A stretch of 64,000 nucleotides of DNA, taken from contig CAYXYP010000001.1 of the NCBI GenBank assembly GCA_964469405.1, positions 36,782 to 100,781 on the forward strand, in the 5' to 3' direction. Of this stretch, positions 2,682 through 40,967 are shown piece after piece. Within the stretch, counting starts at the first letter, position 1; every line of letters starts with the position of its first letter. The stretch comes from an uncultured Candidatus Saccharibacteria bacterium. Its GTDB lineage: Bacteria; Patescibacteriota; Minisyncoccia; Phycocordibacterales; Phycocordibacteraceae. Under the pieces are notes generated by a model. The model did no database searches. It worked only from the letters and a program-made list of their open reading frames with translations, and was not told the origin of the DNA. The position numbers were made by a program, and so were the translations under genes.

Positions 2682-3227
2682 CTACTCGATTACCCACTCC
2701 ACCAATCCGAAATTTTCCGGCTCTAGCCCAATATTTAGAGCAGCCGCGAGCCACTCGATTTGAGAATTCTGTATCGCGTCTTTCTTCTGGCGCTTCAATT
2801 CGAGAAATACGGTCTTGCTTCCCTTCCAGACGAGGACGTCCCAGCATCCTCCGAACCGGCCGGTTTGCCTCCTCAGGTCGGAAACGAGATCCGCTTGTTT
2901 AGATGGCAAGTCTACCGGCTCCACGACATCCGGCAGGCCAACTCTATATTTCCTTCGATATGAATCCACCCAGACACCATTCCAGCCATTCGATTGAAAT
3001 AATCGAAGTACCGCGAGTTCTGCAAATACCGGCTCGCCGTTCCAATCGATAACCGCCTTATTGTTGTAGGTGTTCGGGATCGAATCGCCCACCCATTGTT
3101 TGAAGCGTAAAAAATATTTCGGTATTGAAATTTGCTCGCCAGAAGGAAGCGAAAATATTTCGCTATTACTTTTGTAATGCTCTAAAAATCCAAGATCTCC
3201 CGCTTGGTCGGGTTGTATTGTCTGCAT
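2682..3227 (-). CDS. PD-(D/E)xK / VRR-NUC-like nuclease-domain protein
   Basis: C-terminal 'GGCWDVLVW...FLELKRQKKD...Q..WL' matches the VRR-NUC/PD-(D/E)xK pattern (D...E-x-K, Q). Confidence 0.4.
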   Translation of the reverse strand: MQTIQPDQAGDLGFLEHYKSNSEIFSLPSGEQISIPKYFLRFKQWVGDSIPNTYNNKAVIDWNGEPVFAELAVLRLFQSNGWNGVWVDSYRRKYRVGLPDVVEPVDLPSKQADLVSDLRRQTGRFGGCWDVLVWKGSKTVFLELKRQKKDAIQNSQIEWLAAALNIGLEPENFGLVEWVIE

Positions 3228-3708
3228 GACCTGGGAAGGTTTTGTTTGGCGGGAAATACAAAGCTCCCCGCCAGGCGATGGCTTGCGCCACCCACCCCCA
3301 GTTTCCCGGAGGGACCTTCCCAGGTGCTCCTGACGAGGAGCTTTCTACTGGGAAGGATTTGCGTCATGCCGAGTTACCGGTTTAGACATCTTGATAATAA
3401 CGCGAAAGAGCGACCGTTGGCTACCCTAGCTTAGTTTTCGGTGGTTGCGAAGGACCCTGGGGATAACTACTTTAAGCAGCTCCGATTGACAGTGTTGACA
3501 TTCATCGTCTGTTATAAACGCTGATTTAAATATTCAGACTGAGAAAATATCGTGCGCACTGAATTGTCACGAAATGACTCTCAAAATAACTCGCGCAACA
3601 AAACGTCGATGTATACTTACACTAACCAGCGGGCGAGCAACCTATTTAGATACTGCGAGAGATTCCCAGTGTGGAATATTTCGATAGACACCAAACTAGC
3701 AACCGAAA

Positions 3709-5058
3709 ATGTTTATTCGGTTAACGATAAATGTTATGGGGAATCTCAACATAGTGTATGTGCCTATAAGTGAATTGAGACCGTCAGATTATAATCCGCG
3801 AAAATGGAACGAGGCACAGATAGTGGCACTGAAGGAAAGCTTACAGCGTTTTGGTGTTCTAGATCCATTGATATGTAATTCTGCACTCGGGCGTGAAAAT
3901 ATAGTTATTGGTGGACACTTCCGTCTCAAGGTCGCAAAGGATATGGGTCTCAAGGAGATGCCTGTTGTGTACGTGAATATACCGGAGATAGAGCGCGAGA
4001 AAGAATTAAATATCCGATTGAACAAAAACCTCGGAGAATTCGATCTAGCGATTCTTAAGGACTTCGGTGAGAACTTCTTAAAGGATGTGGGATTCGACAC
4101 GATCGAGCTAGACGAGATCTTTGAGGTTGCGACTACACCCGAGCATTTTGACCTTAAGCGCGAGCTGGAAAAACTTAACATCAGCGAGGTGACAATCAAG
4201 AAGGGCGATATGTTCGACTTAGACGGTTCGCGTCTTCGTTGTGGAGACAGCACTATTGAAGCTGACATGCTTGCACTGATGAACGAAGAGAAGGCCGACA
4301 TGTGTTTTACGGACCCACCCTATATTCTTGATTACCTTCGGGGTAAGAAGAAAAACGGCAAGCCAACGGAAGGTTTCGGATTAAAACGCGATCGTAAGTA
4401 TCTCGGAACCGACTCTCTACCCGAGAACTTCTCCGACCTCTGGATGGCGAACGTCGCCAAGGTGCAAAAGCCGGACTTCTCTATCATCGTTTATGAAAAT
4501 CCTAAGAATTTGAGGACTATATGGAACGCCCTTGAAAAACATTGGAAATATCGGAACACTATCGTGTGGCATCTAAGCAACCGCGTACAAGGTTTTTCTG
4601 CCAAGTACAAATTCTTTAGCAAGCACGATATAGCGCTTGTAGGCACCTCAGGCGATGTGACGCTCAATGATGAGCCAGAAGATGACCCGCTGTTCCAGGA
4701 ACAGTACGAGACAGCTCTCTTCGCAACTTCCGGCCATCCTCATTGGGAGGGACCTGGCAAAGGCAAAAAGTATTGCCCTACTGACCACATAGAATTCGTC
4801 GCGGCAGACGAAAAGTCGTCCGGTCAAGGAATAATCTTCGGGACTAAGCCAATAGAAATCCTCCTTCCATATCTGAAGGTGCTTACTAAGCGTGGCGATC
4901 TTGTGCTTGAGCCTTTCGGAGGTAGTGGTTCCACGCTCATCGCCGCCAACAAACTTGGTCGCCGTTGCTATGTGATGGAGAAGAGCGAAGTGTATACCGC
5001 AGTTATCATTGCCCGCTGGGAGAAGACAACCGGAAAAAAGGCGAAGAAAATTTCCTAG
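3709..5058 (+). CDS. ParB-like nuclease domain fused to a DNA methyltransferase (N6A/N4C, beta class)
   Basis: N-terminal ParB/Srx fold ('ISELRPSDYNPRKW...GGHFRL'); 'DPPY' motif IV (FTDPPY) followed by a C-terminal FxGxG SAM motif (EPFGGSGST). Confidence 0.7.
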   Translation: MFIRLTINVMGNLNIVYVPISELRPSDYNPRKWNEAQIVALKESLQRFGVLDPLICNSALGRENIVIGGHFRLKVAKDMGLKEMPVVYVNIPEIEREKELNIRLNKNLGEFDLAILKDFGENFLKDVGFDTIELDEIFEVATTPEHFDLKRELEKLNISEVTIKKGDMFDLDGSRLRCGDSTIEADMLALMNEEKADMCFTDPPYILDYLRGKKKNGKPTEGFGLKRDRKYLGTDSLPENFSDLWMANVAKVQKPDFSIIVYENPKNLRTIWNALEKHWKYRNTIVWHLSNRVQGFSAKYKFFSKHDIALVGTSGDVTLNDEPEDDPLFQEQYETALFATSGHPHWEGPGKGKKYCPTDHIEFVAADEKSSGQGIIFGTKPIEILLPYLKVLTKRGDLVLEPFGGSGSTLIAANKLGRRCYVMEKSEVYTAVIIARWEKTTGKKAKKIS

Positions 5059-5061
5059 CAT

Positions 5062-5709
5062 ATGGCTGGGAAACTTTCCCCGAAGAAGAAACGTCTTGCG
5101 ACCCTTGCCAAGAAGACTGCCGAGCAGAAGGATGCTCTCCTCGAACACCTCGCCAAATGTTGCATCGTGCAGGCCGCGTGCGAACGAACCGGAGTCGGTC
5201 GTTCCACATACTACAAATGGTACGCGGAAGATGATGGGTTCCGCAATGCGGCTGATAAGGCATTCACTGCCGGTCGTGCGTATCTGAATGATGTTGCTAT
5301 ATCAGGACTTCTTAAACTGATACAAGAAGGCAGTGTTGGGGCGACTATCTTCTGGCTCAAGAATAATCATATGTGGTTCGCCGAGAAAATCCGACATGAG
5401 CACGAGCATCGTATCATCGGTGTCGGCGATGGTGTACTTACCCCAGAACAACGCGAGCAACTCATTAAAGCTCAACGTCTCTCGGGCATGACGGCTGCGG
5501 CTATCATCCATGAAGAATTGAAAGAGAAATTCTTGGCAAGTAAGAAGGGCCAGGAAACGGCAAACGATGTTGACAAAAGTCCAACGAACGAGGCACCAGA
5601 TGACGATCGTATCTCAGACTGGGGTACAGGCAAACCGGCGGAGAAATTCAATAAAGAGCTCGAACGCAATGGGATCAATATCCAGGAGTTCTTGAGGAAT
5701 CGTAAATAA
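5062..5709 (+). CDS. phage terminase small-subunit-like HTH protein
   Basis: HTH 'CERTGVGRSTYYKW' and an 'IFWLKNNH' motif typical of phage TerS; sits downstream of the ParB-MTase as in phage packaging modules. Confidence 0.35.
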   Translation: MAGKLSPKKKRLATLAKKTAEQKDALLEHLAKCCIVQAACERTGVGRSTYYKWYAEDDGFRNAADKAFTAGRAYLNDVAISGLLKLIQEGSVGATIFWLKNNHMWFAEKIRHEHEHRIIGVGDGVLTPEQREQLIKAQRLSGMTAAAIIHEELKEKFLASKKGQETANDVDKSPTNEAPDDDRISDWGTGKPAEKFNKELERNGINIQEFLRNRK

Positions 5710-5715
5710 AATGGT

Positions 5716-5996
5716 TTTAATTCCAAGAATGGCCGCCCCCGAAGGAGAGGCCACCGCGAGAGTTATTTATTCCTCTCACGCTCAGTAGTGTCTGGATGTC
5801 TCTTGGCGTACTCTTCAGTACAGAAACGACCAGTGTCACTACGTCGATAGTCGTAGTTTGCCATAGGCAGATTCGATTAGGCTGATAAACCACCATGGAC
5901 ATGCGAAAGGCCGCATGCCCAGTCGTCAAGCAATAGAGGCTTCTCAGCTCCATGATGATTATCAACTCCATCAAGGCGGCCATTCTTGGAATCAAA
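5716..5996. repeat. 19-bp inverted repeat (TTCCAAGAATGGCCGCC) flanking a ~240-bp structured spacer
   Basis: 'ttaattccaagaatggccgcc' at 5716-5737 and its reverse complement 'ggcggccattcttggaatcaa' at 5975-5996. Confidence 0.5.
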
Positions 5997-6070
5997 GAAC
6001 CTATTTATGGTAGCTCATTTTGAGCCATAGTCGTAGACCCTAGCTTAGATACCCAGATTTGCAAAGAAGG

Positions 6071-7708
6071 TCAAAATGCAACCTCCTGGACAACTGTATC
6101 TAATCCCTGGAAATATTCGGACGGAATGTTTGATATTGGGTAGAATTTGAAACTTTTAATATCGGTACTTCCTGCCAAAGTTGCCGAGCCTTGCACAATA
6201 TATCCATCAACAGCATCCGTCTGCTCCGATATAACCGGCCCTCCACTCATACCGCTCCACATAGGGTTATTAACTAGATAGGCATGTATCCCTCCGGTTA
6301 CTTCCTTTTGTACAATATTCTGATCAACTGCTGCCGGTTCGCTCCAGAAATTTCCGTTGGACCTGAATCCTCCGTATCCCAAAGATACGTAGTCTTCTGT
6401 TTGACTATAACTATGATGAGTCTTTTTAGTGTTGGATTTAAAGATCAGGTCCGAATTGTCAGAAGCAGTGTACAAGACTGCAAAGTCTTTCACGACATCT
6501 CGACAGAGAACAGAAGCGCCCCTGAATTCAACTGGCAATCTTTTGTCTCGAGTAGTGAATTCGACACTCCCATCTTCCCCAACAACATGAGCGCAGGTGA
6601 CGATGGTGTTCTTGCTTATAAAAAAGCCACTACCGATTCCCTGAGTTGATTTGATGATTAGAACCTTGTTTAGATATTCCTCCTTCTTAGATTCTGGCAA
6701 TCTTTCCCCAAATTTCCCTTCCAAGTCACAGAGACGATTGAACAGCTTTCTATACAAGAGGTCTGTCTTATCTCTTACGTTGCCGATATGATCAATTCTG
6801 CCCCTAAGAACCTGTCGGAAGCTTTTTTTGAGACCTGAATTGTAACTATCATTAAACTTCTTCTCCGCTCCTTCTTCACCATAAACTTCCCAGGCATTAA
6901 GCATAGAACGAACATCTCTTATGTATTTTCGAGAAAGATTGCACTTCTTATTGACCTTAATTCCTGTAACCCACTTGCTTTGGTTTGGTACCGCTAAACG
7001 GGTCTTTTTTTGATTAATTGTAAAACCATTTGATTCTATTGTATTAACAATAGCCCTCCCGACAGTAACTGCACCTCCAACATTCGAGGCAAGTTTATTG
7101 TCTAGGCTATTTGCCGAAAATGTTATGTCATCCGCATAACGCGAATATCGCCAACCATTTTTATGTGCCAACCTGATTAGATCCTTGTCTAACCTTAGAC
7201 AAACCATGTTCGCAATAACAGGTGATGTAGGAGAACCCTGAGGTAAACAATTATCGCGTGTTGTGATTCCAGTCAGTACAGAAGATAGTTTATTTCCAAA
7301 ACGAAACGGATACCGTTTAAAAAGACCCATTACTCTTCCGGAGTTCACCACTCCAAAAAAGTCATTCAAATCAATATTTAATACGTAGTTTCTCTGGAGA
7401 TGGTTTTGAGCATTTGTAACAATCCCTCTACCATTAACAAACCCGTGAGCGGATTTTGGCAAAAACTCCTCGTATACGCTACCCAGATAGTAATTGAGTT
7501 TCTTACAGATAGTCTTTAATGCCTTATCTGGGGCATAAATATCTCTGTGCCCTCCCGTTTTTTTAGGAATCGTATAGTGCTTGTATAAAGATTCGTTGTT
7601 ATATGCAAAATAGAGGAGCGTCTCTAAATCAAGATCCAACAAATCTGCGAGATCTCTTATGTTTCCACAATCTCTAATATCTCTATCGGATTTGATGGTT
7701 GAAATCAT
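6071..7708 (-). CDS. retron-type reverse transcriptase fused to a C-terminal trypsin-like (S1) serine protease
   Basis: RT motifs: IPKKTGGHRDI, NIDLNDFF, LPQGSPTSPVIAN, YSRYADDITFS, and the retron-specific VTG (SKWVTGIKV). Protease motifs: TCAHVV (His) and GMSGGPV (Ser, GDSGGP-like). Confidence 0.8.
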   Translation of the reverse strand: MISTIKSDRDIRDCGNIRDLADLLDLDLETLLYFAYNNESLYKHYTIPKKTGGHRDIYAPDKALKTICKKLNYYLGSVYEEFLPKSAHGFVNGRGIVTNAQNHLQRNYVLNIDLNDFFGVVNSGRVMGLFKRYPFRFGNKLSSVLTGITTRDNCLPQGSPTSPVIANMVCLRLDKDLIRLAHKNGWRYSRYADDITFSANSLDNKLASNVGGAVTVGRAIVNTIESNGFTINQKKTRLAVPNQSKWVTGIKVNKKCNLSRKYIRDVRSMLNAWEVYGEEGAEKKFNDSYNSGLKKSFRQVLRGRIDHIGNVRDKTDLLYRKLFNRLCDLEGKFGERLPESKKEEYLNKVLIIKSTQGIGSGFFISKNTIVTCAHVVGEDGSVEFTTRDKRLPVEFRGASVLCRDVVKDFAVLYTASDNSDLIFKSNTKKTHHSYSQTEDYVSLGYGGFRSNGNFWSEPAAVDQNIVQKEVTGGIHAYLVNNPMWSGMSGGPVISEQTDAVDGYIVQGSATLAGSTDIKSFKFYPISNIPSEYFQGLDTVVQEVAF

Positions 7709-7847
7709 TCACTAATACACAAGCCTTCTTATCCTCGACCGCTAAATGCGGAACAACTTAACAACTTATGACACAGGGAGTATCCCCCTAACAACGTCAC
7801 AGCTCGTTGCTGTAACACAACGAAAAAATCGCTTGTGCATTAGTGAA
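7708..7847 (-). ncRNA. candidate retron msr/msd-like ncRNA bounded by a1/a2 inverted repeats
   Basis: 16-nt inverted repeats at 7708-7723 and 7832-7847 (15/16 Watson-Crick, one G.U). a1 ends in G, a2 abuts the RT start codon, and the inner 108 nt contain short hairpins. Confidence 0.3.
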
Positions 7848-7940
7848 TGCCTTCAAACCGAGGTAATAATAGCGCAAAATTGTCTGCAACGCTCAGAAAG
7901 TATCCGAGACGATTCGCTCGGGACCATTCAGACTGTGCAT

Positions 7941-8690
7941 TTAGTTTAGTTTTTGAAAAATAAAGAGGTGCTCATGCATTATCAATAAAAAGTTTGATTC
8001 CTTCGATCTGGTGACCCAGAAACCAGTTGCTTTGCAATTAAATTGTCGTTTAATAATATCCTCTTTCAGGACGAAACCTACTTTCAAGAATCGTTCCATT
8101 ACCTTAAAAGCGAGAGGTTGATACATTTTTTGTCTTCGAGTATCTCCCATCAAAATGGCACAGTATTTCCCAGGCCTTAAAACTCTATGGAGTTCTTTTG
8201 CAACCTTCTCTATTTCATCAACAAAAGCATCTATATCGTGTATTCCCGACAGGTCTTCTTCTATTTTGCCCTCGCTGTATTTGATGATGTCTGCATAAGG
8301 AGGGTGCGTGAGTACAAAATCAATTTCATTGTCTTTAATGAAGCTCATATTTCTCGCATCACACTTCACCACTCGTTGTTTCGCTTTATTGTCGACCTCA
8401 AATTCAAGTGATTTTCTTGTTCTTTCTAACGCTTCTTCATTCACATCAATGCAAGTGATATGACGATTAAGTATCTTTGCCTCTATTGCTGTAGTACCTC
8501 CTCCAATCATGCAGTCCAGCAAATGATCTTTTTCATTTGAGTACCGTAAAATAAGATTGCGGACGACCTCTGGTGCCCAATTTCCGCGCCAATCTGATTT
8601 ATGCGTCGCCCAGTTTCCACGACGCGGGAATGCCCATACGGTTGTACACTCTAGTTCAAATTCGTCAGGGTGTAATTTCTTTTCCACCAT
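7941..8690 (-). CDS. DNA methyltransferase (motif I GGGT then HPPY), DpnA/M.MboIC-like second MTase of an R-M system
   Basis: 'LDCMIGGGTT' SAM motif and 'HPPY' catalytic motif; 249 aa; adjacent to an REase and a Dam-like MTase. Confidence 0.6.
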   Translation of the reverse strand: MVEKKLHPDEFELECTTVWAFPRRGNWATHKSDWRGNWAPEVVRNLILRYSNEKDHLLDCMIGGGTTAIEAKILNRHITCIDVNEEALERTRKSLEFEVDNKAKQRVVKCDARNMSFIKDNEIDFVLTHPPYADIIKYSEGKIEEDLSGIHDIDAFVDEIEKVAKELHRVLRPGKYCAILMGDTRRQKMYQPLAFKVMERFLKVGFVLKEDIIKRQFNCKATGFWVTRSKESNFLLIMHEHLFIFQKLN

Positions 8691-8694
8691 ATAA

Positions 8695-9552
8695 TTACCA
8701 TACGAGCTTACCTAAAACTCCTGCTTCGAGCATGTTGAGATTAAATACATACTCGTTGTGATTGTATGTTTCTTCAAGAGGTCTCTTTGTAGTGTACCAA
8801 CCCAACCCATCAGTTATCCAAATAAAATCAATATTTTGAGCTTTCAGCTCATCATAAAGACTTCTGAATTCACCACACACGGCCTTCAGTTTTGAGCCAC
8901 CACCGTTATAAAAATTAGTTTCAAACAGTTTGATACTTTTATTCGTTGGGTTGTACACTGCAAAATCAAAACTTCGCTCTGATTTATCTATTTTCACGTC
9001 AACGCCCCACTTACTTTTTATGGCTGTAGAACGTGCTTGTGGCAAATACTCATAACCATTCTTGTTACAAAAATCACTTATGAATTCCCCTACAATCTCT
9101 TCCATCAGTGTGCCACCACGATTCTTACGGCCATTACTATCAAGACCGACCTCAACACCCATAACGTAGTCCACAAGATTCTTAACTCCATCCTTTTGGA
9201 ATAGTCGTGCGAGGCCAGATTTGTTGAGGAATTCAAAATACTTTGCTGGGTCTTTTTCTGTACCTGAGAAATCAAAGAACTCAGAATTCTTCGCAGCTTT
9301 ATCGAACACCTCGAGTTTATTCTCTCGTACGGCCAAAAGTACTGGCAGTGCCTTCACAATATCTGGGTTAGAACTATAGAGTTTCTTGAATTCGTCTTCC
9401 AGATTCTCTTTTCCGAGAAGATAATTGAGTTTATTGAGAGTTATCTCTAGATCAGAGCTATTCGCAAAGACCTTCTTCCAATTCACAAAATAGTCCCACG
9501 TCTTGATTGAACTCTTAAAAGTTGTGATGAGATTATTGAAGTCTTTGTCCAT
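8695..9552 (-). CDS. type II restriction endonuclease, probably DpnII/MboI family (GATC), inferred mainly from context
   Basis: 285-aa ORF sandwiched between a Dam-like MTase and a DpnA-like MTase, matching the DpnII/MboI/LlaDCHI cassette architecture. Confidence 0.45.
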   Translation of the reverse strand: MDKDFNNLITTFKSSIKTWDYFVNWKKVFANSSDLEITLNKLNYLLGKENLEDEFKKLYSSNPDIVKALPVLLAVRENKLEVFDKAAKNSEFFDFSGTEKDPAKYFEFLNKSGLARLFQKDGVKNLVDYVMGVEVGLDSNGRKNRGGTLMEEIVGEFISDFCNKNGYEYLPQARSTAIKSKWGVDVKIDKSERSFDFAVYNPTNKSIKLFETNFYNGGGSKLKAVCGEFRSLYDELKAQNIDFIWITDGLGWYTTKRPLEETYNHNEYVFNLNMLEAGVLGKLVW

Positions 9553-9556
9553 AGTA

Positions 9557-10513
9557 TTAATAATTAGTCACCAGCACTTCCTTAATCTTCCCTCTTCCAG
9601 ACCCTTTTGAATTAATCGCCCGCCCAGCTTCTACTTTAGAGATTCGAACTCCCTTGAATCCGGAATAAATGCCATTGATGAATGGTGCGTCAGAATTTGA
9701 GAGCATCACGAAACATCCTCTGTTACTCAATTCAAGAAAAATATCACGCAGTTCCCACTGATCCTTTTCGGAAAAGCCATTGGACGTATATGAAGTAAAT
9801 GTCGCTGTTTTACTTACAGGATGATACGGTGGATCGAAGTACACAAAATCCCCCTTCTTTGCCTTCTTTAGAACTTGTTTGTAGTCCTGATGCTTTATCT
9901 CAACGTTTTTGAGTGCTCCTGAAATCTTCCGAAGATTCTCTTCGTCGCAGATTTTTGGATTCTTGCTGTAGCCAAAGGGCACATTAAATTCGCCTCGACT
10001 ATTCACACGGTACATGCCATTGAAGCCCGCGCGATTGAGATAGATGAAACGTGAAGCTACTTGAAGCGGAGAAAGTTTCTCTACTTTTTGTGCGCGTACC
10101 TTTAGAAAATACTCTTTACTATGAGCATGCTTCTTAAGCGCCTTAATGAGACTCTCTACATCGTTTTTTATTACGTTGTACGTTGTAACGAGCTCGAAAT
10201 TGAGATCAGAGAGAAATGCTTTTTTAGGAAACAGATCAAAGAATACAGCTCCTCCGCCGACGAATGGCTCAAAGTATTGGTCCTTGGTAGAGTCGAATTT
10301 CTCTGGTGGATAAAGGTTCATCAATCTGAACTGTCTGAGAAGCTGTCGCTTCCCTCCGACCCATTTTACAAACGGTTTCGGTTTTTCTTCTATTATTTTT
10401 GCGGCCTCATTTATGAAATCTTTAGAGGAGGTTAGACCGTAGACATTACGCGCATAAATGGCATTTATATCAAATTCCTGCTGTATCTTTCTGACTGCCT
10501 CAGCCGTGGTCAT
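9557..10513 (-). CDS. dam: Dam-family (D12 class) N6-adenine DNA methyltransferase
   Basis: 'VKWVGGKRQLL' and 'YFDPPY' motifs characteristic of Dam/DpnM. Confidence 0.75.
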   Translation of the reverse strand: MTTAEAVRKIQQEFDINAIYARNVYGLTSSKDFINEAAKIIEEKPKPFVKWVGGKRQLLRQFRLMNLYPPEKFDSTKDQYFEPFVGGGAVFFDLFPKKAFLSDLNFELVTTYNVIKNDVESLIKALKKHAHSKEYFLKVRAQKVEKLSPLQVASRFIYLNRAGFNGMYRVNSRGEFNVPFGYSKNPKICDEENLRKISGALKNVEIKHQDYKQVLKKAKKGDFVYFDPPYHPVSKTATFTSYTSNGFSEKDQWELRDIFLELSNRGCFVMLSNSDAPFINGIYSGFKGVRISKVEAGRAINSKGSGRGKIKEVLVTNY

Positions 10514-10650: not shown

Positions 10651-11988
10651 ATGAATAAGGCGGTATTTGAGGGTACAGACAGGGTTCTGGGGCTTAAACC
10701 AGAGGCCAAGGAGGCGGTAAAGGTGCGGTATTGCCTCTATGCCAGAAAGAGCACTGAACAGGACGAGATGCAGGCGCTCTCAATCGATTCGCAGATAAAG
10801 GAGATGACTGCACTCGCGGCTCGCGAAGACCTCGAAATTGTAGTGATTAAAAAGGAAAGCCATTCGGCGAAAGAGGCCAGCCAGCGGCCAGTCTTTAACG
10901 AGATGATCGACGAGATGCGCGCCGGTAAGTTCAACGGCATCCTGACCTGGGCGGCAGATCGTATTAGCCGCAATGCAGGCGACCTCGGGAGAGTCGTCGA
11001 TATGATGGACGCTGGAGTGCTCGTGCAGATACAGACGTATAGTCAGAAATTCTCGAACAATCCCAATGAGAAATTCCTGCTGATGATCCTCTGCTCGCAG
11101 GCGAAGCTCGAGAACGACAACAAAAGCATCAACGTGAAGCGCGGCCTACGCACACGCGCAGAGATGGGCATGCTCCCCGGCTGGGCTCCGGTCGGATATC
11201 TTAATGACACGCGGTCAGACCACAAATGCGAATATCTGCTCGACCCGATACGCTCCCCTATCGTGAAGCTTATCTTCGAAAAGGTCGGCAAAGAACGGTG
11301 GAGCGGAGTGAAGATATATCACTGGTTGCGAGAGGAAGTGAAGTTCACGACAAGAAGCGGGAAGAATATGAGTATCGGTACTCTCTACGAACTATTGAAA
11401 AACCCATTTTATTGCGGCGTCTTCGAGTATCCACGCGGGAGTGGCAATTGGTATGTCGGTAAGCACGAAGCGCTCATTACACGAGAACTCTTCGAGTTGG
11501 TACGCGAAAAGATCGTGTCAGAATCGAATCCAAAAAAACGAACGGGCGAATTTGCCTTCACTCGCCTGATGACTTGCAGCGAGTGCGGCTCTGGCGTCAC
11601 TTGCATGGATAAAGAGAAATTCGTAAAGATGCTCGGGACGACAAAGATTTACAGATATTACTTATGCACTCGAGCCCAAGACCGGCGATGTAAGAATCCG
11701 TACATTCGTGAGGATAATCTCATAGAACAACTCTCCGAAATCATCGATGGGATCGAGATAGACCGCCTTGGCGCGCGACACCTTATAGATAAAGAGGTCG
11801 CCAGATTCAACAAACTACGCTCACAGGTGCTAGGCGTAAAAGAGAAAGAAAAGGCACTCGAGATGGACGTGAAGCGTTATGCAAGATACCTGCTCGAGGA
11901 AGGCACTATCGAAGAAAAGCGACAGTTGCTTGAGCAGTTGCGCGGCAAGATCGTACTGAAAGATAAAGAAATCACGCTTTCAAATTAA
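10651..11988 (+). CDS. large serine recombinase (resolvase catalytic domain + recombinase domain + zinc ribbon)
   Basis: 'YARKSTEQ' catalytic Ser motif; C-terminal Cys-rich ribbon (CSECGSG...CTRAQDRRC); 445 aa. Confidence 0.7.
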   Translation: MNKAVFEGTDRVLGLKPEAKEAVKVRYCLYARKSTEQDEMQALSIDSQIKEMTALAAREDLEIVVIKKESHSAKEASQRPVFNEMIDEMRAGKFNGILTWAADRISRNAGDLGRVVDMMDAGVLVQIQTYSQKFSNNPNEKFLLMILCSQAKLENDNKSINVKRGLRTRAEMGMLPGWAPVGYLNDTRSDHKCEYLLDPIRSPIVKLIFEKVGKERWSGVKIYHWLREEVKFTTRSGKNMSIGTLYELLKNPFYCGVFEYPRGSGNWYVGKHEALITRELFELVREKIVSESNPKKRTGEFAFTRLMTCSECGSGVTCMDKEKFVKMLGTTKIYRYYLCTRAQDRRCKNPYIREDNLIEQLSEIIDGIEIDRLGARHLIDKEVARFNKLRSQVLGVKEKEKALEMDVKRYARYLLEEGTIEEKRQLLEQLRGKIVLKDKEITLSN

Positions 11989-12483
11989 ACGAGCACTCAT
12001 AAGTTGAATAGATAACGCCTGATCACTCACTCGATACAGACGAGCAAGTGTTGGAATATCAGGAGAGGATTTATAGTCTTTCTTGAGAATTATTTTCGGC
12101 ATGAGGAGCTCGGCAGCAAAAACATTCGCTTCGGTTTCGTCATGCGATCCATCATCCTGTCTACCGGTGCAAGCATGACCCAAAAGTAAGTGGCCTATTT
12201 CATGAGCGATTGTGAAGCGACGACGACACCAGGGATGATTGCCATTAAACCCGATAGTTGCGTATTCACCGTCAACATCTTTGCAGGATACGAGCAACCC
12301 AGAGACTTTACTGCTGGCTTCAACACGGAGCACGGTTAGATTATGCTCGATTTGCAGGTATTCGATGACCTGTTGCAACGAGACGGGCGCATTTTTTATT
12401 TGTGCGTCCTTAACCAGTTTCTGCGCTAGTGTTATCGCCAGCTTTTTCCGCGCACCCAAATCTGGCAAATCATCGTACATTTG
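11980..12483 (-). CDS. ImmA/IrrE-family zinc metallopeptidase (anti-repressor protease)
   Basis: HEXXH 'AHEIGHLLLGH'; overlaps the end of an upstream XRE regulator as in ImmR/ImmA modules. Start estimated at the internal Met (MYDD...). Confidence 0.6.
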   Translation of the reverse strand, partial: QMYDDLPDLGARKKLAITLAQKLVKDAQIKNAPVSLQQVIEYLQIEHNLTVLRVEASSKVSGLLVSCKDVDGEYATIGFNGNHPWCRRRFTIAHEIGHLLLGHACTGRQDDGSHDETEANVFAAELLMPKIILKKDYKSSPDIPTLARLYRVSDQALSIQLMSARLI

Positions 12484-12814
12484 GCCTGCGCTTCGCAAGA
12501 TTAATGAAGCGAGAGAGTGCGTCTTTATCCTCCTTACTGAGATCTGGGTCGGCGCGAAGAGCCACTTGAATATCGACGGGAGCATCCTCTTTCTGGCCGA
12601 GAAAAAATTTCACATCTCGCTGAAGTACTTCGCTCACACGCTGCAAAAGTGCGGCTGGGATACCTCGTTCACCCTTTTCAATCAAAGAGATGGCTGTTGC
12701 TGACTGGAAGCCGAGCGCTTCAGCCAACTCGGTCTGTGATAAATTCCTCTCCTCCCGGACTGCCTTTATCCTAGAGCCCATCGTATTGGCGCTTTTTCCT
12801 TCCTTTTTTATCAT
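12470..12814 (-). CDS. XRE-family helix-turn-helix transcriptional regulator
   Basis: 'LSQTELAEALGFQSATAISLIEKGER' HTH_XRE signature. Confidence 0.75.
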   Translation of the reverse strand: MIKKEGKSANTMGSRIKAVREERNLSQTELAEALGFQSATAISLIEKGERGIPAALLQRVSEVLQRDVKFFLGQKEDAPVDIQVALRADPDLSKEDKDALSRFINLAKRRPNVR

Positions 12815-32470: not shown

Positions 32471-32559
32471 GGAGGGGTCGCATAGAGGCCTAGTGCGGCG
32501 GGTTGCTAACTCGCTATACGAGTAAAATCGTATCGAGGGTTCGAATCCCTCCCCCTCCG
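32471..32559 (+). tRNA. tRNA-Ser (anticodon GCU), class II with long variable arm, no encoded CCA
   Basis: Acceptor GGAGGGG/CCCCTCC, anticodon loop UUGCUAA, variable stem AUACGA/UCGUAU, T-arm GAGGG-UUCGAAU-CCCUC. Confidence 0.85.
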
Positions 32560-32579
32560 CAGCGAGCATAGTGAGCCAA

Positions 32580-39320: not shown

Positions 39321-40967
<1,647 letters not shown>

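Follow-up and report, generated by a model that had tools for sequence, protein, structure and literature searches.

A probable type XI retron and its upstream non-coding RNA in a Kaiserbacteria-like genome

Is a reverse transcriptase (RT) that is fused to a trypsin-like protease in an ultra-small bacterial genome part of a retron, and if so, where is the RNA that it would copy? The question is raised by a single open reading frame (ORF) in a 64,000-nt stretch of contig CAYXYP010000001.1 (GenBank assembly GCA_964469405.1, positions 36,782 to 100,781 of the forward strand), which we analysed as a whole and call the window. An original prediction had described this ORF as a retron-type RT-protease with a candidate non-coding RNA (ncRNA) directly upstream, and had noted that such fusions are catalogued and mechanistically uncharacterised. 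Catalogued they are, as type XI of the reference classification, which comprises RTs of clade 8 fused to a trypsin-like protease and places types I-C and XII in the same clade (Mestre 2020, PMC7736814); for the mechanism, no study was found in the literature searched. The same classification states that type XI systems 'lack recognizable ncRNA modules' and speculates on peptide cleavage. Here we conclude, with a probability of roughly 0.85 and on sequence evidence, that the locus is a canonical type XI retron with its ncRNA, because the protein matches the type-specific PADLOC model from end to end, its motifs and protease triad are invariant, the upstream ncRNA has covarying a1 and a2 arms, and it shares a hairpin with a type XI retron that produces reverse-transcribed DNA (RT-DNA).

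The reverse transcriptase-protease fusion and its class

Translated from its ATG, the ORF gives 545 aa, of which a retron RT takes up the N-terminal part and a trypsin-like protease the C-terminal part (coordinates of all features are in Table 1). All of the retron RT motifs quoted in the original prediction are found in the translation (TIPKKTGGHRDI at residues 46-57, LNIDLNDFF at 110-118, LPQGSPTSPVIAN at 155-167, YSRYADD at 188-194 and WVTG at 246-249), and so are the two motifs, TCAHV and GMSGGPV, on which it had based a C-terminal S1 peptidase domain (VTCAHV at 370-375, SGMSGGPV at 485-492). The search with hidden Markov models (HMMs) that it had proposed as a check detected both expected Pfam domains within the one ORF, RVT_1 (E=7e-23) and Trypsin_2 (E=1.4e-12). 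We then assessed residue conservation in an alignment of 41 full-length homologues, reaching down to ~31% identity. The RT active site (R190, Y191, A192, D193, D194) and the retron-specific NAxxH (N99, A100, H103) and VTG (T248, G249) motifs are invariant or nearly so, and the protease triad His374/Asp408/Ser488, with the serine in GMSGGP, is invariant, as the prediction needed it to be. By residue conservation, both catalytic centres are intact. At E<=1e-10, a large protein collection yielded 1822 homologues, and both Pfam domains occur in most of the best 120.

The AlphaFold2 model of the fusion is of good quality (mean predicted local distance difference test score, pLDDT, 89; predicted template modelling score, pTM, 0.75) and has a helical linker of ~100 residues (250-345) between the RT and protease domains. 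Its first protease-like Foldseek match is an S1C domain (7sjy_B), and the protease domain also gives weak NCBIfam matches of the MarP/HtrA type. Public gene calls for the exact protein use a TTG start 22 codons downstream (523 aa; window 7640-7708, minus strand; P0001, L098-L100), a call that masks the overlap of the ncRNA with the RT start codon described below. The 545-aa ATG start is more likely, since retron Eco2 and the PADLOC models align from residue 11 onwards and M1 is invariant across the 41 homologues.

Comparisons with RT models of all kinds pointed to the same class. The top two PADLOC models are both RT-Protease_XI (467 and 463 bits, residues ~10-527); the next ones, RT-TIR_XII (363 bits) and RT-Toprim_I-C (341 bits), match the RT half only, others score lower, and all of the top 25 matches are retron models. 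Among PDB sequences the best match is Ec67, the RT of retron Eco2 (E=3.7e-45), with group II intron RTs at 1e-9, and the best Foldseek match is the cryo-electron microscopy structure of retron Eco2/Ec67 (E=1.7e-26, 33% identity), after which come only further retron RTs. NCBIfam holds no model for the RT-protease fusion; the nearest ones, Retron_TIR and retron_Ec67_fus, align with the RT half at scores under their cut-offs. For group II introns, the RT-maturase model TIGR04416 (group_II_RT_mat) reaches 61.9 bits against a cut-off of 300, and the Drt models also stay under theirs (Drt2 37.5 vs 390, Drt3a 24.6 vs 200, Drt4 19.9 vs 450). The affiliation with retrons over group II introns and diversity-generating retroelements (DGRs), which the original prediction had named among its possible refutations, is thus upheld by model scores and by the best structural match.

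The upstream RNA element and its conservation

An inverted repeat search of the region upstream of the RT returned arms at 7699-7733 and 7822-7856. The RNA fold of 7700-7945 (minus strand) has an energy of -86.3 kcal/mol (z=-5.2), and none of 200 shuffles was equally stable. The two arms, a1 and a2, form a stem of 24-26 bp (7856-7831 with 7724-7699) with a perfectly or G-U paired core of 19 nt, and enclose 106 nt. The 16-nt inverted repeats of the original prediction (7708-7723 and 7832-7847) are therefore real but too short, since the core is 19 nt and the stem extends to 7856 and 7699, and the 108 nt placed between them become 106. Its proximal repeat was thought to abut the RT ATG; instead, the a2 arm contains the start codon (7708-7706) and enters codons 2-4. 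Finally, the last G of a1, which had been put forward as the branching guanosine, is base-paired (G7832), and the candidate shifts to the first unpaired base 3' of the arm, G7830. This base is invariant in all 12 family members (column G29 of alignment A4, and L081 too), and it is the most likely branching G on the strength of its position and conservation.

Ten homologue contigs (53-70% amino acid identity) were chosen by protein identity alone, and their upstream regions were searched blindly for the best inverted repeat. The same ncRNA element was found upstream of 10/10 loci. In all 11 loci, the window counted, a2 starts at -16 from the ATG and includes it; in the ten homologues a1 ends in AAGC followed by GA, with 102-109 nt between the arms. 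The alignment revealed a conserved a1-proximal part (the G-A, a U-run, the msr stem-loop SL1 and ~25 more nt), a variable middle of ~40 nt and a nearly invariant a2-proximal 'UAGCGG..AAGGAUAAGAAGG'. Across the 32 pairs of a1/a2 and SL1 in 11 loci, 96.9% of cells hold standard pairs, and 13 pairs show compensatory double changes. Helix 1 (a1/a2) contributes 24 pairs, ten of them changed on both sides (96.6% of cells paired), and helix 2 (SL1) eight pairs, three with double changes (97.7%). Column shuffles reached four of five covariation measures in 0/500 cases and the fifth in 2/500, and a slid control, with the 3' partners shifted by 1-3 columns, gave only 30-44% pairing and 0-4 compensatory pairs. 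The covariation of the a1/a2 stem in homologues, on which the original prediction could have failed, is thus present well above both controls. A second small RNAalifold hairpin (A4 columns 56-75) was left out of the model for weak support.

The outer part of helix 1 pairs a1 with codons 2-4, and compensatory changes occur there too; the first six protein residues are unconserved and modelled with low confidence. Both observations fit a shaping of these codons by RNA pairing.

From the 11 ncRNA sequences we built a covariance model, which scored the window at 155.9 bits and L081, an independent JGI contig and the one close locus from a metagenome scan for relatives, at 138.6 bits (E=1e-30). The ncRNA hence co-occurs and co-varies with the protein in 12/12 family members. 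More distant relatives also matched (L095 E=5e-7, L016 E=1e-5, L020 E=0.009), and seven further loci gave weak matches (E=0.07-1.6), all of them just upstream of the RT and on its strand. A blind search of 29 distant RT-protease loci found, in many, inverted repeats of 12-19 bp lying ~87-131 nt apart upstream of the RT (e.g., L011, L028, L037, L051, L062). These exceeded all 20 control windows in 10/29 loci and equalled the best control in four more. The covariance model missed the Parcubacteria locus L051, which has its own 17-bp upstream inverted repeat. A scan of genome contigs yielded distant relatives only (<=46% identity), many of which lack the protease, and was of little use for covariation.

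The boundaries of a template within this element can be predicted from published type XI retrons. Khan 2024 (PMC10849725) predicted ncRNAs from folding rules and reported validated ones for 'clade 8, type XI', and its supplement gives type XI ncRNAs together with sequenced RT-DNAs of 55-82 nt. We mapped the RT-DNAs of the type XI retrons tested there (terminals 1122, 1143, 1163, 1235 and 1278) onto their ncRNAs. Four of the five templates begin 3-6 nt 5' of a2, the exception being terminal 1235, whose template begins within a2; the other end lies 7-11 nt beyond the lone msr hairpin, on its 3' side. Carried over to the window, these maps predict a multicopy single-stranded DNA (msDNA) of ~65-72 nt that would start with 5'-CTTCTTATCC. 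Close to a2, 'GGAUAAGAAGG' is nearly invariant, and 'AGAAGG', conserved in the window family, is found ahead of the RT-DNA start in terminals 1143 and 1163 as well. In pairwise local alignment, the U-run plus SL1 is identical to terminal 1163 (Ruminococcus) at 21/23 positions, a match attained by 0/500 shuffles; the RT-DNA of this retron is validated, at 0.26x that of Eco1 (Khan 2024, PMC10849725). The same segment matches terminal 1165 (Clostridium) at a level attained by 2/500 shuffles.

In the alphaproteobacterial RT-protease loci L075-L077 and L034, a1 sequences such as 'ACGAGGTCTCCCC..CTCGCATACGCGCTG' lie upstream of the RT. Their near-identity to the Sphingomonas type XI ncRNA validated as Khan terminal 1122 points to a second type XI ncRNA subfamily with a conservation of its own.

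Two further signals lie upstream of a1. A terminator-like hairpin after the preceding methyltransferase gene suggestively separates the restriction-modification (R-M) operon from the retron unit. A weak candidate promoter, read by eye, would put the first transcribed base near 7856, at the 5' edge of a1; the promoter scan found no sigma-70-like site before the ncRNA, the spacer of the by-eye candidate being below the scan minimum of 16.

Table 1 Features of the retron locus and its surroundings (positions in the window)
Feature	Position	Strand	Basis and details
RT-protease ORF	6071..7708	-	ORF list; PADLOC RT-Protease_XI E=2e-140, residues 11-527 of 545
RT (fingers/palm) domain, residues 47-243	6980..7570	-	Pfam RVT_1; YADD codons 7138-7127; NAxxH residues 99-103; VTG 247-249 just after
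Trypsin-like (S1/S1C-type) serine protease domain, residues 359-497	6218..6634	-	Pfam Trypsin_2
Catalytic codon His374	6589-6587	-	
Catalytic codon Asp408	6487-6485	-	
Catalytic codon Ser488	6247-6245	-	
Retron ncRNA (msr-msd) candidate	7699..7856	-	158 nt from outermost a1 to outermost a2 base; fold, homologues, covariation
a1 arm	7831..7856	-	Core 7849-7831 (CAUUCACUAAUGCACAAGC), extension 7856-7850; inverted repeat, helix 1
Candidate branching (priming) guanosine	7830	-	First unpaired base 3' of a1; then invariant A and U-run
msr stem-loop SL1	7804..7823	-	7 bp and UUAC-type loop; only conserved msr hairpin; helix 2 covariation
Predicted msd (template)	7725..7795	-	Boundaries extrapolated from Khan 2024 type XI RT-DNA maps
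a2 arm	7699..7724	-	Core 7724-7706 (GCUUGUGUAUUAGUGAAUG), extension 7705-7699; inverted repeat, helix 1
Possible promoter	7863..7889	-	TTGCAG, 15 nt, TATTAC; read by eye, weak
Terminator-like hairpin	7904..7921	-	Terminator scan; weak T-tail, suggestive only
N4/N6 methyltransferase	7941-8690	-	Methyltransferase-restriction-methyltransferase cassette
DpnII endonuclease	8695-9552	-	E=3e-94
D12-class Dam-like methyltransferase	9557-10513	-	Methyltransferase-restriction-methyltransferase cassette
Large serine recombinase	10651-11988		
ImmA/IrrE M78 peptidase	11980-12585		
HTH_3 partner of ImmA/IrrE peptidase	12470-12814		
ParB_N-N6_N4 methyltransferase fusion	3709-5058	+	
Weak TerS/helix-turn-helix-like protein	5062-5709	+	
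LOOT RNA (RF03000)	3277-3388	-	Rfam, 67 bits vs gathering score 46.4, full length

Proposed mechanism and alternative explanations

The closest mechanistic precedent is retron Eco2, in which a branched msDNA scaffold cages a fused Toprim domain until the phage nuclease DenB degrades the msDNA and releases it (PMC12916289). A working model for the locus joins this analogy, for the protease, to general retron biology and the RT-DNA maps of other type XI retrons, for the msDNA. The RT would bind the upstream ncRNA, prime from the 2'-OH of G7830 and copy ~7725-7795 into a branched msDNA of ~65-72 nt. The msDNA/ncRNA scaffold would keep the fused protease inactive, and a phage activity that degrades or alters the msDNA would free it to cleave host or phage proteins, so that the infection is aborted. 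Judged against the tested type XI retrons, the locus probably makes an msDNA that roughly fits the prediction. Gating of the protease by this msDNA in the manner of Eco2 is possible, at somewhat under even odds, and by the same analogy with Eco2 the locus would be an anti-phage module. With the start codon inside a2, the folded ncRNA may in addition limit translation of the RT-protease, which is speculative. A bolder version, in which one a1/a2 helix both defines the msDNA template and buries the RT-protease start, so that translation and msDNA synthesis would be coupled in a self-limiting switch and an msDNA with conserved ends and an unstructured, variable middle would gate the protease, we regard as unlikely.

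Several points weigh against the retron reading or against parts of this model. The comparison with known msr/msd models, which the original prediction had proposed together with the fold, stood only in its first half: the fold is significantly stable, but no Rfam family matched over the element (E<=10 for the region; gathering score for the whole window). In an nhmmer search with the family profile against the published type XI ncRNAs and 550 shuffles, the real sequences scored no better than the shuffles, and we dropped the claim of overall ncRNA homology for this reason; the only significant match to published type XI ncRNAs is the local one over SL1, to two Firmicutes ncRNAs. The predicted msDNAs have no strong conserved hairpin of the kind seen in classic retrons, their folds being weak and inconsistent (mean z=-1.6), and their ends are extrapolated. 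The placement in clade 8 and type XI rests on best-hit HMM and structure comparisons. The msDNA, its branching, the protease activity and phage defence are all inferred, and no type XI experiment on a defence phenotype or a protease substrate was found in the literature searched, which may miss subscription-only papers. What holds for Eco2, whose effector is a nuclease, may not hold for a protease. We also aligned seven published type XI ncRNAs to the window family with MAFFT and discarded the result, which was meaningless at 40% column identity.

The alternative that survives best leaves the retron in place and reassigns the protease, which would act in cis or on the complex (self-cleavage, maturation) and not as an abortive-infection effector, with the defence output coming from the RT and msDNA or from a host partner elsewhere. 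No substrate of a type XI protease is known, the long helical linker holds the two domains apart, and two reports describe trypsin-like proteases of other defence systems that activate a partner pro-enzyme and are not themselves toxins (PMC12799240, PMC12642450). Yet homologues have no conserved partner gene beside them, PADLOC treats RT-Protease_XI as a single-gene system, the fused C-terminal domain is the effector in sister types (Toprim, TIR; Eco2), and the fusion has been kept over more than 100 full-length homologues. We therefore hold a purely internal role of the protease to be improbable and retain it as the putative effector.

Could the inverted repeat instead be a cis-regulatory RNA that occludes the start codon, as a translational attenuator or mRNA-stability element, or become a template only upon infection, like the type VI retrons reported to form little msDNA constitutively? 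The position of the ATG and codons 2-4 inside a 24-26-bp helix is what such an element would require; the self-structure of the predicted msDNA is weak and not conserved, the family profile matches no validated type XI ncRNA significantly, and a preprint (10.1101/2025.10.22.683967) describes type VI retrons without msDNA accumulation. A pure translational hairpin, however, would have no need of 106 enclosed nt in which the G-A is invariant, SL1 covaries and the segment next to a2 hardly varies, and the layout matches that of type XI ncRNAs whose RT-DNA has been sequenced. The translational and template roles are, moreover, not mutually exclusive. We consider a regulatory role in place of the retron ncRNA to be a poor bet.

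It is very improbable that the type XI locus is decaying and a mere non-functional passenger of the R-M cassette. Low GC content and horizontal acquisition in a reduced genome would suit a remnant, but the ORF runs through 545 codons without interruption, no catalytic residue is missing from either domain, and the ncRNA keeps all of its pairs under the family model. The identical protein also occurs on six contigs, with four Logan sequencing runs listed, in the same synteny where displayed. That the RT is of another class (group II maturase, DGR, or an RT of the unknown-group (UG), abortive-infection (Abi) or defence-associated (DRT) kinds), its retron-like features being coincidental, is effectively refuted: RVT_1 is common to all RT classes and there are weak matches to group II intron and Drt models, but retron models are ahead by hundreds of bits (XI 467, group_II_RT_mat 62, Drt2 37), NAxxH and VTG are invariant, the top structural matches are all retron RTs, Rfam found no group II intron RNA (E<=10 in 5500-8500; gathering score for the whole window), and the only local repeat in 7600-8000 is the a1/a2 pair, where no search aimed at the template and variable repeats of DGRs was made; we rejected the group II intron, DGR and UG/Abi identities.

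Genomic setting and comparison with known systems

The retron lies tail-to-head after a three-gene DpnII/MboI-like cassette, which confirms the GATC-type R-M cassette of the original prediction as a D12 methyltransferase, a DpnII endonuclease and an N4/N6 methyltransferase. Retron and cassette together form a low-GC block (0.39-0.42 vs 0.47-0.54 in the flanks), with a ParB-methyltransferase fusion and a weak TerS-like protein on one side and a large serine recombinase with an ImmA/IrrE-HTH_3 pair on the other. By composition and gene content, this block lies inside a mobile, horizontally acquired island. Full-length relatives of the RT-protease also occur on IMG/VR proviral contigs. A ParB-methyltransferase is likewise found near RT homologues in L109 and L111, and type I, IIG or II R-M genes stand beside homologues in at least four of ten loci (L101, L102, L103, L107). 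No neighbour gene is conserved, as the flanks differ in every homologous locus examined, and the RT-protease locus is a single-gene system of one protein and one RNA with no conserved accessory ORF. Elsewhere, the neighbours upstream of homologues include an ABC/AAA_21-type ATPase, a Schlafen-like helicase fused to an S24 peptidase and an RHS/YD-repeat toxin (L113 2161-3732; L114 397-2439; L104 1-2092), further hints of defence or conflict islands.

The host is, by marker identity, a Kaiserbacteria-like bacterium of the candidate phyla radiation (CPR)/Patescibacteria, since GroEL of the window (39321-40955, minus strand) shares 91% identity with the GroEL of a named Candidatus Kaiserbacteria metagenome-assembled genome (MAG) and of Minisyncoccota MAGs. 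Away from the retron, the LOOT RNA match lies just upstream of a 181-aa ORF (2682-3227, minus strand) without a Pfam or PADLOC match, and the 64 kb hold one tRNA only, Ser-GCU (32471-32560).

Type XI as a class has been published before, as have its domain architecture and its RT-DNA, and the value added here is incremental. The reference classification lacks a type XI ncRNA, and the literature searched holds no published mechanism for the effector chemistry of a protease fused to an RT. The window and its 11 relatives supply an ncRNA consensus, backed by covariation, for one canonical type XI lineage that bears the protease, and with it testable predictions: a candidate priming G (G7830), predicted msDNA ends, catalytic residues (Ser488) and a start codon that lies within a2. 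The locus can serve as a construct design for testing msDNA gating of the protease, for which culturable hosts such as Pseudomonas and Sphingomonas would be easier type XI models. It also indicates that ultra-small CPR genomes carry type XI modules on mobile islands beside R-M systems. If true, an msDNA that gates a protease would be a new retron effector logic, one that cleaves proteins and not nucleic acids or NAD+.

How does the element compare with known retrons? The closest solved structure is retron Eco2/Ec67 (type I-C1, RT-Toprim; PDB 9i2f, 9lm3), at 33% identity to the window RT. Both follow a one-protein design with a C-terminal effector fused to an RT of the same clade; unlike the protease, the Eco2 effector is a Toprim RNase that cuts tRNA, and the similarity of the two proteins ends near residue 300-330. 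The type XI retrons of Khan 2024 share the layout of a1, short spacer, one msr hairpin, template and a2, and their RT-DNAs of 55-82 nt bracket the ~65-72 nt predicted for the window; with the proteobacterial and Nitrospira ncRNAs among them, the window family has only this architecture in common. A 2026 preprint by Toro gives covariation-supported upstream ncRNAs with a1/a2 only for protease-less, type XI-like lineages. These belong to the same broad RT clade, have no protease and carry separate WYL or DnaB_C accessory genes, whereas the window element keeps the ancestral protease fusion. With type XI as defined by Mestre 2020, the element shares the full-length match to the type-specific HMM and the lack of a conserved accessory gene, and has its ncRNA directly upstream on the same strand. 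The window lineage differs in coming from CPR/Patescibacteria and in its unusually long a1/a2 arms (24-26 bp) that overlap the RT start codon, and neither difference breaks its membership of type XI.

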